A stretch of DNA of 64,000 bases from a phage. Shown piece by piece: positions 3,086 through 7,277 of this stretch. The notes beneath the pieces were generated by a model, which was not told where the DNA came from, did no database searches, and was given only the letters and a program-made list of their open reading frames with translations. The DNA is taken from sequence record PZ534534.1. The stretch is one strand, 5' to 3'. Positions within the stretch are counted from its first letter, which is position 1, and each line of letters begins with the position of its first letter. The translations under genes and the position numbers were made by a program.

Positions 3086-3484
3086 ATGATTTCAGTTTTA
3101 ACATGGCTGAGTAGGTATAAAGGGATCATAAAAGGTTTAGTTTTTGCAGCTGCGATAGGTACAGCTTATCTTGGGGCCGTGTATTGGTTTAACTCCAAGC
3201 TTAATGATGCCTACCAGGAGGGTGTGTCAGCAACAGAGTTAAAGTGGGAACGGATCCTTGATCAGCAACAAAAGCAGGCCGACAAGATTAAAATGGGCCA
3301 CGCAGAGGAGGTTAAAAACCTTGAAAAATCTCTTTCTGATCTGCAGGATAAATTAAATATAGCTGAGAGGGCAGGTAAAGAAAAGCAGATTATTTACCTC
3401 CAATCACCTGAGGGTAAGAAGTCAACACTCCCTGATCAGCTTATAGATATTTATAATGAGAGTATTAATCAGGAGGGTCGATGA
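3086..3484 (+). CDS. inner-membrane spanin (i-spanin, Rz-like)
   Basis: N-terminal TM helix (GLVFAAAIGTAYLGAVYWF) followed by charged coiled-coil region; overlaps the lipoprotein gene by 4 nt. Confidence 0.65.
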   Translation: MISVLTWLSRYKGIIKGLVFAAAIGTAYLGAVYWFNSKLNDAYQEGVSATELKWERILDQQQKQADKIKMGHAEEVKNLEKSLSDLQDKLNIAERAGKEKQIIYLQSPEGKKSTLPDQLIDIYNESINQEGR

Positions 3485-3768
3485 GAGTTGCTGCACTGTT
3501 TATTGTGTGCTTGTTATTATGTGGGTGTGCAACCAGCGTTGAGAGAGAATACAAGATTGACCCTCCTGATGTAGGAAGGTTGATTGTTAAACCCCCGGAA
3601 GGTGCCATGAAACCACCTGCTAAAGCTATGCCTTTGAAGAAAGGTGCGCCAGATGCAGTGAATTCTGGCATTATGAGGGATAATAATCTGTCTTGTAGCA
3701 ATGATAGAGCTAAATTGATCATTTTGCAAGACTATATTAGAACACTGTTTCCAAAGGAGAGAGGTTAA
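3481..3768 (+). CDS. outer-membrane lipoprotein spanin (o-spanin, Rz1-like)
   Basis: Signal peptide with lipobox-like LLLCGC, Pro-rich 95-aa product; classic spanin gene pair arrangement. Confidence 0.65.
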   Translation: MRVAALFIVCLLLCGCATSVEREYKIDPPDVGRLIVKPPEGAMKPPAKAMPLKKGAPDAVNSGIMRDNNLSCSNDRAKLIILQDYIRTLFPKERG

Positions 3769-4193
3769 TGTCTAAGATTTACGGACCGTGTTCTGAAAAG
3801 CAGAAGATGATCCTTGAAAACGATGCAGATATTTTGGTAATCGGCGGTGCCGCAGGGTCTGGCAAGTCGTTCCTCTTGCAATTGATGCCACTTAAAATTA
3901 TTGATGACCCCCACAGCTCTGTGGTTATGTTCCGAAGAACAACCCCACAGTTGGAAGGTGAGGGTGGACTATGGCCTAAAGCAGTAGCTATTTATAGTGA
4001 TCTGCCTGAAAACATTAAGCCAAAGTTCAGAGAGAAGGATCATAAGTTCATTTTTCCACGGTTTGATCCGAACACCGGCAAGTGGGATAGAAGCAAAAAG
4101 GGAGCTGTTGTAAAATACTGCCACATGGAGTATGTACAAGATAAGCTTAACCATCAAGGGCTTGAGTATACCATGGTTTGCTTCGATGAGGGT
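3768..4193 (+). CDS. terL: terminase large subunit, exon 1 (ATPase Walker A GGAAGSGKS, Walker B MVCFDE)
   Basis: Walker A/B motifs typical of terminase ATPase domain; ORF ends with in-frame stop immediately after the predicted 5' splice site (GAGGGT|TAATT). Confidence 0.8.
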
Positions 4194-5076
4194 TAATTTG
4201 TAGCTCTCGTAAAACCTCCCTAATTGCGGGGAAATCTTTATTATTGACACCACCAACCTGTCATGGTAACATGATAGAGGCTTCGAAGAGAGATCGAAGG
4301 TATGGTAACAGTGTGTTAATTTAGATAATCCGCAGCGAAGCATCCGAGAGGATGAACGTTCAACGACTAGTCGAAAGACGTAGAATCAAGCGATTCGAAA
4401 CGGGAGGGTGAATGTGTAATACTAAAAAATGTATGGATTGCCAAAGAGTTCTACCTATTGATGATTTCTTTTTATCATCTAAGAGCAAGGATGGATACTC
4501 AGGTACATGCAAGGAATGCTATATGTACTACAGGAAGGGTGGATCTCGTAAAAACAAAAATATGGTTAAGAGAGATGACGCAGCATTGTTTATTCAAGAC
4601 TTGCTGAAGAAAGGTGAACTTTTTGAATGCAAATCTTGTCATGAAAGTATGCTCGCTGATAGTTTTTACACAAAACGTGACTATGGTAAAGTATATCTGG
4701 TTACGAACAGGTGTAAGATGTGTGAAAAGTTTTATCAGATTGAGAAGAAATTTCACATAACAAAAGATGAATACTATCGTCTACTCTCAGATCAAGATCA
4801 TAAGTGTGCCATTTGTAGAATATCCCTTGATGAGTATAGGACGCAAGGGTATAGAGATTTCTTTTGTGTTGATCATGACCATAAAACTGGTGCTGTAAGA
4901 GGGTTGCTTTGTGATAAATGCAACAGAGCTTTAGGTTTCTTCCAAGAGGATGAGGAAACTATTCTTAGAGCGGCAGAGTATTTACACATTCATAAGATAT
5001 AGTCTGGTCTGCATGGAGACATGCAGCTGCCTGAAAATGGCGGGGCAAGACTAGCGACCTTGCCCGAACATAAACG
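4194..5076 (+). mobile_element. group I intron 1 (td-like) in terminase gene, carrying an HNH endonuclease ORF
   Basis: Begins TAATTT after exon-terminal U; 3' core CTGCATGGAGACATGCAGCTG...GGCGGGGCAAGACTAGCGACCTTGCCCGAACATAAACG closely parallels the T4 td intron core as recalled from memory; exon reading frames are restored across it. Confidence 0.7.
4412..5002 (+). CDS. intron-encoded homing endonuclease, endonuclease VII-like HNH zinc-finger type
   Basis: Motif CAIC...VDHDHKTGAVRGLLCDKCNRALG matches the recombination endonuclease VII / HNH pattern; several CxxC pairs; own RBS GGGAGGG. Confidence 0.8.
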   Translation: MCNTKKCMDCQRVLPIDDFFLSSKSKDGYSGTCKECYMYYRKGGSRKNKNMVKRDDAALFIQDLLKKGELFECKSCHESMLADSFYTKRDYGKVYLVTNRCKMCEKFYQIEKKFHITKDEYYRLLSDQDHKCAICRISLDEYRTQGYRDFFCVDHDHKTGAVRGLLCDKCNRALGFFQEDEETILRAAEYLHIHKI

Positions 5077-5393
5077 ACACAATTCGAATGGGAGCAGATA
5101 GACTATCTGATGTCTCGTCTGCGATCTCAGTCAAAGTATCCATCAAGAATGGTTATCAGCTGTAACCCCGATTCAGAACACATGCTTGCCAAACTGGTTA
5201 GATGGTGGTTGGACGATGAAGGGTATCCAGATCCGGAGAAATGCGGTAAGAAAAGATATTTTATCCGACGCGACGGTGAATTTATCTGGGGAGACTCTAA
5301 AGAAGAGTTGATAGAGAAATACACCACGGTTAACGGACTGGGTGTTGAGATCAAGCCAAGACCGTTGTCATTCTCGTTTATAGGCGCAACCAT
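5077..5393 (+). CDS. terL: terminase large subunit, exon 2
   Basis: In-frame continuation (TQFEWEQIDYLMSRL...SFSFIGATI) with no RBS at the internal ATG (5110); boundaries inferred from frame conservation and td-like intron ends. Confidence 0.65.
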
Positions 5394-6372
5394 TAAATGA
5401 TAGTGGCTTCGTGCAGAAATGCACGTCGAATAACTTCGTTAATTGCTGGGAAATCCGATTGCTAAACGGACAATCAGCAGCTATAATTACCCTTCCGAAC
5501 CTGTAGTAGGGAGATGTTTGAAATGAAAAATTTAGGCTTTTTAGGCTACAATCATTATTGTGCTACATACGATGGCAGAATTTACAGTCTGTATTCTAAT
5601 AAATTCCTCCATCCTAATGTGCAGAAAAAGACTGGCTATGCTATGGTAACTTTGTGCGAGGACGGTAAAAAGTTCCAAGTGCTCGTTCACAGAGTGATTG
5701 CTATGACTTTTGTTGATAATGACAATCCCAGCGTGAAAACTCAAGTAAACCACCTAGATGGTAATAAGTTGAATAACGCCGCATGGAACCTTGAGTGGAC
5801 AACGCCTGAGGAAAACACACATCACGCTCATGAAATGGGACTTAAAAAGGACTATGTCAATAAATACAGGTCCCTGGATGATGCCACTGCTCTTGAAATA
5901 TGTAGGCTGTTAGAACAAGGCGCAAGGGTAAAAGACATTTGTGAAATGTTCGGTGTCAATCAACCACTTGTAAGTGGTATAAAGAATGGCTCAGTATACC
6001 CAGATATTTCTAAAGAGTTTAACTTTAGAAAAGTGCCAACCTCTAATCGGATAAGTGAGCACAAGATAATAGGTATCTGCGAGGATCTTAGTGATAAGGT
6101 CTTGTGTGTCAATAAAATAGCTAAGAAGTGGGGAGTAAGTTTTAGTGTTGTTAAAGGAATAAAAGACCGTAAGACTTACACCTATATTTCAAACAATTAC
6201 GATTGGTAATGTAGTTCAACGACTATCCCGAGAGGGAGTAGGGCGCAAGCTTATGGCGCTCGAAAAGCGAAGCACCCTGAAATGGGTGGTGATATAGTCT
6301 ACTCTGCATGGTAACATGCAGCAGCACGTAAAGGTGCGGAAGGTGGTGTTGCGACCACCTTTGAATATAAGG
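5394..6372 (+). mobile_element. group I intron 2 (td-like) in terminase gene, carrying an HNH endonuclease ORF
   Basis: 3' core ACGACTATCCC...GGGAGTAGGG...GATATAGTCTACTCTGCATGGTAACATGCAGCAG plus P9-like hairpin AAGGTGGTgttgcgACCACCTT; the exon-3 frame opens only 2 nt before the predicted 3' splice site. Confidence 0.7.
5514..6209 (+). CDS. intron-encoded HNH homing endonuclease with C-terminal HTH
   Basis: Motifs VHRVIAMTFV...VNHLDGNKLNN...NLEWTTPEEN are the canonical HNH endonuclease signature seen in phage homing endonucleases. Confidence 0.85.
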   Translation: MFEMKNLGFLGYNHYCATYDGRIYSLYSNKFLHPNVQKKTGYAMVTLCEDGKKFQVLVHRVIAMTFVDNDNPSVKTQVNHLDGNKLNNAAWNLEWTTPEENTHHAHEMGLKKDYVNKYRSLDDATALEICRLLEQGARVKDICEMFGVNQPLVSGIKNGSVYPDISKEFNFRKVPTSNRISEHKIIGICEDLSDKVLCVNKIAKKWGVSFSVVKGIKDRKTYTYISNNYDW

Positions 6373-7177
6373 ATTCGATAATCCTGTCTGCCTGAGAGAT
6401 AACCCAGAATACCTTGCTTTCCTTGAAGGTCTACCAGAGCTGGAAAAAGCTCAGCTTCTCCATGGTAACTGGTTTGCAAAGCCTGAGGGTGCAAACTATT
6501 TTCAAAGATCTTTCCTTCGTGATGCCGATAGAGTACCTCTTGGGTCAGTATCTTGCAGGGCATGGGATAAGGCAGGAACCGAGAGAACTTCCGGTAATAA
6601 ATTTCCTGACTTTACTGCCAGTATTAAGGTAAGTAAAGATAGCGACGGCTTTTATTACCTGTCCGGTGATTATTGTCCTGAGAACGTGGATGACGGGAGG
6701 TATTCCACAGGTCTGGAAGGCAAGTTCTGTAAAAAGGCTGGTGAACGAGATGTGATCATCAGGAAACAGGCGCAGTTCGATGGTGATGATTGCATAATCG
6801 TCTTCTCTGTGGACCCAGGGCAGGCAGGTAAGAGTGAGTTCTTAACCTCCTCCAGATCCTTGCTTGCCGAAGGGTTCAGGGTTGAAGAAGACCCAATGCC
6901 TTCCAACAAGTCTAAACTGACAAGGTTCTCACCTTTTGCCAATCTTGCCCAACAAGGAATGGTGAGGATTGTAAAATCCAGTTTCCATCCTGATACTCTG
7001 GAAGCATTTCTGACTGAACTTGAAAAATTCAACGGGGAAAGATCAACATTTAACAGAAAAGACGACTGGGCCGACTGCGTAGCTTCTGCGATTAATTTCC
7101 TGGAGAAAGAGGAGGTAGCACTTCCTTGTGTGATTCCATCAATCTCATCACCTTCTATGTTCAAGCGTTTTATCTAA
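6373..7177 (+). CDS. terL: terminase large subunit, exon 3 (nuclease domain)
   Basis: DNPEYLAFLEG...LHGNWF... motif block typical of the terminase C-terminal nuclease domain; frame matches exons 1+2 for a total of about 515 aa. Confidence 0.75.
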
Positions 7178-7209: not shown

Positions 7210-7277
7210 AAAGTAATTGGAGATACTAGCCCTCTGACGAGGGCTATTTTGTTATACTGTTTTGAGGGGTAAAGCTT

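Follow-up and report, generated by a model that had tools for sequence, protein, structure and literature searches.

How a phage might produce an intact large terminase subunit (TerL) from a gene whose reading frame is broken twice is the question raised by a locus in sequence record PZ534534.1, of which a stretch of 64,000 nucleotides (nt), here called the window, was analysed. The source is an rV5-like (Vequintavirus) myophage of Escherichia coli, 98.3% identical over 3.6 kb to phage HdK5 and similarly close to other Vequintavirus records. A preliminary description of the window had proposed that the terminase gene (terL) lies in three exons separated by two td-like group I introns, each containing a free-standing HNH endonuclease open reading frame (ORF). 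The evidence presented below suggests, with a high degree of confidence, that terL is a single transcription unit split by two mobile, td-like introns of subgroup IA and spliced to a TerL of 515 amino acids (aa). All coordinates refer to the window, all features described in it are on the plus strand, and a slash within an exon or protein sequence marks an insertion site.

Structure of the interrupted terL gene

The first exon (3768-4193) encodes aa 1-142 and carries the Walker A (GGAAGSGKS, aa 26-34) and Walker B (MVCFDE, aa 136-141) motifs, after which its ORF (3768-4196) is closed by an in-frame UAA at 4194-4196. The terL frame picks up at 5077 (TQFEWEQIDYLMSRLRS...) with ACA as the first codon of exon 2 (5077-5393), which starts with aa 143 and breaks off after the second base of codon 248. 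The frame is taken up again, in mid-codon, at 6373 (I-FDNPVCLRDNPEYLAFLEG...), where exon 3 (6373-7177) supplies the third base of codon 248 and the remainder of the gene through aa 515 and the stop codon. Exon 3 thereby encodes both the closing part of the ATPase domain (FDNP...DNPEYL) and the nuclease domain, which is RNaseH-like. Neither exon 2 nor exon 3 has a Shine-Dalgarno sequence or a start codon at its 5' end. The in-frame stop behind the ATPase motifs and the two resumptions of the frame lacking a ribosome-binding site are thus as first described.

When joined in silico, the three exons form a coding sequence (CDS) of 1548 nt, the product of which matches the Pfam models Terminase_6N (PF03237; E=6e-20) over residues 25-294, spanning both junctions, and Terminase_6C (PF17289; E=5e-6) over residues 394-489. 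A search of the PDB sequences with this product returned no match, and the domain identities accordingly come from Pfam. The combination of an ATPase with Walker A and B motifs and a C-terminal RNaseH-like nuclease in one chain, which characterizes the T4-type TerL, is found in the spliced product only.

Natural alleles that lack one or both of the intervening segments fix the junctions. Phage rV5_ev168 lacks exactly 5394-6372, phage PDX lacks exactly 4194-5076, and phage pangalan lacks both, its terL being a single CDS of 1548 nt; the spliced CDS also aligns as one unbroken 1548-nt piece in many other relatives. Because the intron-less alleles align at these positions, the splice junctions are exact to the base, and the boundaries of all three exons proposed earlier are correct at this resolution. 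The predicted ligated junctions read ...GAUGAGGGU/ACACAAUUC... at site 1 and ...GCAACCAU/AUUCGAUAAU... at site 2, as against ...GATGAGGGC/ACGCAGTTC... and ...GCAACAAT/ATTCGATAAT... in the intron-less allele of pangalan, and the corresponding junction-spanning tryptic peptides are predicted to be ...LNHQGLEYTMVCFDEGTQFEWEQIDYLMSR and ...PLSFSFIGATIFDNPVCLR.

The spliced product is colinear with the TerL of pangalan and identical to it at 515 of 515 residues, as would be anticipated from the preliminary description, which had proposed an alignment with intact terminases as a check. The two coding sequences differ at 21 nt, all of them synonymous, and 17 of these differences sit in six 50-nt bins flanking both junctions. 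At site 1 the window has GGT/ACA CAA where pangalan has GGC/ACG CAG, and at site 2 it has ACC AT/A where pangalan has ACA AT/A. Co-conversion, splice-site constraint or immunity to the endonuclease would each be expected to produce such a clustering of synonymous differences around the junctions.

Identification of the intervening segments as td-like group I introns

The two intervening segments, of 883 nt (intron 1, 4194-5076) and 979 nt (intron 2, 5394-6372), are supported as td-like group I introns of subgroup IA with homing-endonuclease ORFs by several lines of evidence, namely covariance-model matches, a complete set of helices, covariation, identity to the td intron of phage T4, and the base-exact polymorphism described above. 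Intron 1 opens with the in-frame UAA, and intron 2 contains an in-frame UGA at 5398-5400; both close with a terminal guanosine (omega-G), respectively G5076 and G6372.

A covariance-model search of both segments, likewise proposed in the preliminary description, recovered the group I intron family RF00028 in each of them when the scan was run by E-value. Intron 1 is matched over 4184-5026 (48.5 bits, E=1.7e-10), and intron 2 by two partial matches at 5384-5635 (19.8 bits) and 6083-6321 (35.7 bits, E=1.1e-6). Natural ORF-less alleles, with cores about 99% identical to those of the window introns, score 84-96 bits against the same model: the intron-1 alleles of rV5 and RudolfGeigy reach 84.9 and 84.0 bits, and the intron-2 allele of RudolfGeigy reaches 95.6 bits (E=7.8e-24). 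The E-value scan of all 64 kb returned no group I introns beyond these two.

All helices are fully paired in both introns. In intron 1, P1 (4188-4195/4201-4208) contains the wobble pair U4193•G4203 at the 5' splice site, U4193 being the last base of exon 1. It is followed by P3 (4215-4220/4402-4407), P4 (4225-4230/4329-4334), P5 (4234-4237/4323-4326), which bears an extension of about 85 nt, P6 (4341-4345/4350-4354), P7 (4365-4369/5000-5004), P7.1 (4370-4372/4377-4379), P7.2 (4383-4387/4392-4396), P8 (4410-4419/4982-4991), P9 (5008-5015/5020-5027), P9.1 (5029-5031/5039-5041) and P9.2 (5043-5049/5059-5065). In intron 2, the corresponding wobble pair in P1 (5390-5395/5401-5406) is U5393•G5403, where U5393 is the last base of exon 2. 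The remaining helices are P2 (5411-5415/5420-5424), P3 (5434-5439/6267-6272), P4 (5444-5449/5474-5479), P5 (5454-5457/5467-5470), P6 (5481-5483 and 5486-5491 with 6205-6210 and 6212-6214), P7 (6221-6225/6295-6299), P7.1 (6226-6229/6234-6237), P7.2 (6241-6246/6256-6261), P8 (6273-6277/6284-6288), P9 (6304-6310/6315-6321), P9.1 (6324-6327/6334-6337) and P9.2 (6340-6347/6354-6361). Both introns share the P7 sequence GACUA/UAGUC and a conserved J8/7 sequence (GAUAUAGUC), and in both, P7.1 and P7.2 lie between P7 and the 3' strand of P3; these are extra helices typical of subgroup IA.

Covariation was assessed with RNAalifold on eight td-like 3' cores aligned by plain MAFFT, namely those of the two window introns, intron 1 of rV5, the td intron of AV110, and the terL introns of J2-1, CB7 and 18-1-2 (the last with two). 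The resulting fold contains P7, P7.1, P8, P9 and P9.2, and 20 of its 29 pairs show compensatory double changes. While P7 is invariant across the eight introns, P7.1, P8, P9 and P9.2 covary. The 3' end of intron 1 is 77.9% identical to that of the wild-type td intron of T4, and for intron 2, compared from P7 to its 3' end, the identity is 66.9%; shuffled sequences averaged about 47% and did not exceed 54%. BLAST matches of the introns land on the td-intron regions of T-even phages. The td-like character that the preliminary description had seen in the two segments, and in their 3' ends in particular, is therefore borne out.

The intron-encoded endonucleases

Each intron encodes one predicted endonuclease. 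As these ORFs are carried by the introns, the term "free-standing" applied to them in the preliminary description is inappropriate, but the HNH label is acceptable, with a qualification in the case of intron 1. The ORF of that intron (4412-5002, 196 aa), which has a Cys-rich N-terminus and is looped out of P8, matches the Pfam family Endonuclease_7 (PF02945; E=2e-21, 76 bits against a cut-off of 23.6), and its matches among PDB sequences are Hpy99I (E=9.6e-6) and T4 endonuclease VII. It is predicted to be a homing endonuclease of the endonuclease VII type, and thus belongs to the His-Me finger/HNH superfamily, though it is not recovered by a canonical HNH family model.

In place of window positions 4410-4991, rV5 has an 18-nt sequence with a P8 hairpin of its own: the two strands of P8 read GAAUGUGUAA and UUACACAUUC in the window, against AAGCGA and UCGCUU in rV5, and pair in either case. 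The signals for translation of the intron-1 ORF are embedded in the ribozyme core: the 3' strand of P3 (GGGAGG, 4402-4407) doubles as the Shine-Dalgarno sequence of the ORF, the AUG is part of the 5' strand of P8, and the 3' strand of P7 opens with the UAG stop codon (5000-5002). Because the ribosome-binding site, start and stop overlap P3, P8 and P7 in this manner, translation of the ORF would unfold the catalytic core. The coordinates therefore indicate that endonuclease translation and ribozyme folding are mutually exclusive on one and the same RNA molecule of intron 1.

The ORF of intron 2 (5514-6209) is looped out of P6 and encodes 231 aa when read from its first AUG; translation probably begins at the second one (5523, giving 228 aa), which is placed 9 nt after a GGGAG at 5509-5513 and agrees with the annotation of HdK5. 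Its UAA stop codon (6207-6209) falls inside the 3' strand of P6. The product matches the Pfam family HNH_3 (PF13392) with E=1.7e-6, above the cut-off, as well as HTH_23, and it aligns over residues 8-151 with I-HmuI (PDB: 1U3E; E=3.6e-11), including the HNH motif (...NHLDGNKLNN...NLEW). It is thus predicted to be an I-HmuI-like homing endonuclease combining HNH and helix-turn-helix modules. RudolfGeigy has 21 nt in place of window positions 5482-6213.

A promoter-like element (TTGCTA-17-TATAAT) is present at 5459-5487 within intron 2, and its -10 hexamer begins at 5482, exactly where the ORF-bearing insertion of 732 nt, missing from the ORF-less allele, has its left edge. The coincidence hints at a promoter carried by the endonuclease cassette itself, although promoter-like matches in the region are not above chance (13 sigma-70-like matches against a shuffle expectation of 9.6 ± 3.0), and no promoter is claimed.

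Distribution of intron alleles in related phages

In the phage collection, 117 records match most of the spliced terL at an identity of at least 94%, a number that, like those that follow, includes GenBank/RefSeq duplicates. Intron 1 is present in 53 of these 117 records, in 30 with its ORF and in 23 in an ORF-less form of 319 nt. Intron 2 is found in 24 of the 117, with its ORF in 15 and in an ORF-less form of 268 nt in nine; it also occurs, at 78% identity, in four Avunavirus records. Seven records combine both introns with both ORFs (HdK5, phiWec193, phiWec196 and four labelled "Campylobacter phage"). Hence, absent, ORF-less and ORF-bearing states are found at both sites, and the closing helix is retained in the ORF-less and ORF-bearing forms alike.

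Three allele states at a fixed site are what would be expected of the stages of a homing-intron cycle. Both introns display the features by which mobile introns are recognized, namely an endonuclease ORF, presence/absence polymorphism and flanking synonymous differences of the kind expected from co-conversion, and they are predicted on these grounds to be mobile. The locus thereby offers a clean and well-sampled view of the life cycle of a homing intron in an essential late gene, with empty, ORF-bearing and ORF-less sites all represented.

The records MG065644-MG065690 ("Campylobacter phage A142, A141, A140, A13b, C15, ...") are unannotated and labelled as phages of Campylobacter jejuni. Their terL is 98% identical to that of the rV5-like phages of E. 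coli and has the same introns, and their host label looks doubtful.

Proposed mechanism and alternative explanations

In the reading that we favour, each intron RNA would fold after transcription into its P3-P8 catalytic core, whereupon free guanosine would attack 3' of U4193 in the case of intron 1 and of U5393 in the case of intron 2, each of these uridines being held by the U•G wobble of P1. The freed 3'-OH of the exon would then attack after the terminal G (G5076 or G6372, respectively) and thus ligate the exons. Full-length TerL of 515 aa would arise only from the doubly spliced late terL mRNA, and translation of unspliced RNA would end at the UAA at 4194 or at the UGA at 5398. Since neither exon 2 nor exon 3 possesses a translation start, it is a sound inference that TerL synthesis would depend on two splicing events. 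In a mixed infection, the endonucleases would cut or nick intron-less terL at two conserved sites, DEG/T, in the Walker B motif, and GATI/FDNP, and repair from the intron-bearing genome would copy the intron along with flanking exon sequence.

Certain observations weigh against this reading. The copies of the introns in the window fall below the gathering score of RF00028, which is 50 bits (48.5 and 35.7), and a scan of the whole window with Rfam at the gathering threshold returned tRNAs only. The introns score below this threshold because ORF insertions of about 600-700 nt split the match, and as these insertions depress the score, the blank at the gathering threshold is not read as absence. 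Splicing, both in this phage and in rV5, is deduced from sequence, and the activities and target sites of the two endonucleases are likewise predictions. Furthermore, in the related Pectobacterium phage CB7, one HNH-associated intron remained unspliced under the conditions used (PMC7344957), so sequence likeness alone does not guarantee activity. The CB7 intron that does splice, moreover, occupies another insertion point, 6 nt upstream of site 1.

The same unspliced CB7 intron lends some support to the alternative that survives best, which holds that the introns are real but that one or both are impaired in splicing, or require a protein cofactor, ribosome assistance or a particular timing, such that the efficiency of splicing would limit or regulate TerL output. 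This idea refines the favoured reading and does not compete with it exclusively. It also draws on the sharing of the Shine-Dalgarno sequence, AUG and stop codon of the intron-1 ORF with P3, P8 and P7, by which translation would compete with folding. We nevertheless consider it unlikely, given that both intron cores are complete and covarying, that the closing helix is intact whether the ORF is present or not, and that the seven records with both ORF-bearing introns represent viable plaque-formers.

A bolder version would have the output of TerL, and hence the onset of packaging, set by a translation-versus-splicing switch acting twice in series. Such a switch is conceivable because the signals of the intron-1 ORF overlap P3, P8 and P7, and coupling of translation and splicing has been discussed for T4 td and I-TevI. 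If true, it would extend a known idea, and the introns would act as more than passengers; at present we regard it as a speculative proposal with a low probability.

That the locus instead comprises three cistrons, the products of which assemble into a terminase without any splicing, with endonuclease genes and non-coding flanks between them, is suggested by several GenBank records, such as that of HdK5, which annotate each piece as a CDS in its own right ("terminase" or "hypothetical"). However, exon 2 opens at ACA and exon 3 in mid-codon, neither is preceded by a start codon or Shine-Dalgarno sequence, and the gene would be split inside the Walker-B/ATPase fold. The intervening DNA is, furthermore, a bona fide group I ribozyme, and the identical protein is one chain in intron-less relatives. 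Taken together, these observations make separate terminase polypeptides very improbable. The notion that terL is a decaying pseudogene hit by selfish insertions, with another enzyme packaging the DNA, finds no support beyond the interruption itself and is scarcely credible in light of the complete absence of amino-acid changes relative to the intact orthologue (all differences being synonymous), the occurrence of the same interrupted allele in many independently isolated viable phages, and the canonical placement of terL upstream of the portal gene.

Relationship to previously described introns

The two-intron arrangement of terL is already known, having been annotated and published for rV5 and its relatives. 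In the rV5 record (DQ832317), the name "ORF64ABC" is given to terL, whose CDS is a join of three pieces, and the second of the segments between them is annotated with an HNH homing endonuclease. The window shares with rV5 the same gene, the same two insertion sites, 98-99.5% nt identity and the same I-HmuI-like ORF in intron 2. The only difference from the rV5 arrangement concerns intron 1, which is ORF-less (319 nt) in rV5 and ORF-bearing in the window; the phages nomo, rV5_ev168, JES2013 and others have intron 1 with an endonuclease-VII-type ORF, as in the window. Under the section title "Introns in terminase", Kropinski et al. 2013 (Virol J 10:76, PMC3606486) described the gene as consisting of three segments, one with a homing endonuclease, and credited David Shub for help with the intron placement. 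The genome announcement of LL12 also mentions a terL intron (PMC6658697), and records of the BASEL collection, for instance that of RudolfGeigy, annotate a three-part join for terL.

The arrangement is ordinary for large virulent phages. It opens no new question, having entered GenBank with the rV5 record and the literature in 2013. The practical value of the present analysis lies in annotation, given that in the records of many relatives, such as HdK5, the exons are entered as individual proteins named "hypothetical" or "terminase-like". The junctions established here permit the correct join(3768..4193, 5077..5393, 6373..7177).

Among characterized systems, the T4 td intron (subgroup IA2, encoding I-TevI) shares with the window introns its core architecture, including P7.1/P7.2, P9, P9.1 and P9.2, and an in-frame stop directly after the 5' splice site; as in intron 2, its ORF is looped out of P6. 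It differs in its host gene, which is thymidylate synthase rather than terL, and in its endonuclease, which is of the GIY-YIG rather than the HNH/His-Me type. Intron 1 departs further from td in having its ORF in P8, overlapping P3, P8 and P7, in being devoid of P2, and in its long P5 extension.

The closest experimental precedent is provided by CB7 (Certrevirus, Vequintavirinae), in which an HNH-bearing terminase intron was found to splice by reverse transcription PCR and Sanger sequencing (Buttimer et al. 2020, PMC7344957). The two phages have orthologous terL genes (51-61% aa identity), and the CB7 intron resembles those of the window in its td-like 3' core, HNH ORF and insertion in Walker B. 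Unlike the latter, it lies between the D and E of that motif, is the single terL intron, and carries another endonuclease ORF. I-HmuI itself, the HNH nicking endonuclease from the DNA polymerase intron of Bacillus phage SPO1, has another target gene and resides in another intron, and the C-terminal DNA-binding region has diverged between it and the product of the intron-2 ORF. The first group I intron described in a phage terL belongs to an unrelated siphovirus, is a single intron, and has in common with the window the concept of an interrupted terminase gene.

Beyond the two sites occupied in the window, td-like terL introns were observed at no fewer than three further sites near Walker B, namely the equivalent of N/HQG in Pseudoalteromonas phage J2-1 (locus L006, 2197-3170), directly after HQG in Escherichia phage 18-1-2, and between D and E in CB7 (locus L010, 385-1350). 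The J2-1 intron resembles the window introns in its P1 and in its rV5-like HNH ORF. This family of td-like introns thus seems to move among conserved sites of terL that lie close together.

The terL of 18-1-2 (Avunavirus, OK136180; locus L008, 571-1917) additionally has an in-frame insertion of about 320 aa in the P-loop of Walker A, bounded by IIGGAAG/CLSKDHEVLTPSG and VVVTGN/SGKSYLLQ. With Cys at its start, Asn followed by Ser at its end, and a LAGLIDADG-like "LQVAVMADG", this insertion has, judging by these motifs, the look of an intein. A Pfam search with the 448-aa first terL ORF of 18-1-2 returned no match. The gene also contains two td-like introns, the first of them placed after HQG and not at DEG/T, which brings the selfish elements in this terL to three.

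Features neighbouring terL

A 99-nt tRNA-like sequence lies at 2321-2419, between tRNA-Ser and tRNA-Thr. ARAGORN reports it as "tRNA-???" with a 4-base anticodon (atcc), and it scores 35.5 bits against the Rfam tRNA model. It is unannotated in rV5, for which six tRNAs are listed in the cluster, and it could be a degenerate tRNA, a tRNA resembling frameshift suppressors, or a false call. The genes directly 5' of terL encode an i-spanin (3086-3484) and an o-spanin (3481-3768); the latter contains the lipobox LLLCGC, and its stop codon shares one base with the terL start. In several database records this o-spanin is wrongly named "putative large terminase subunit". On the 3' side of terL, a terminator-like intrinsic hairpin with a T run is present at 7227-7246, and rV5 has a rho-independent terminator annotated at the equivalent position.

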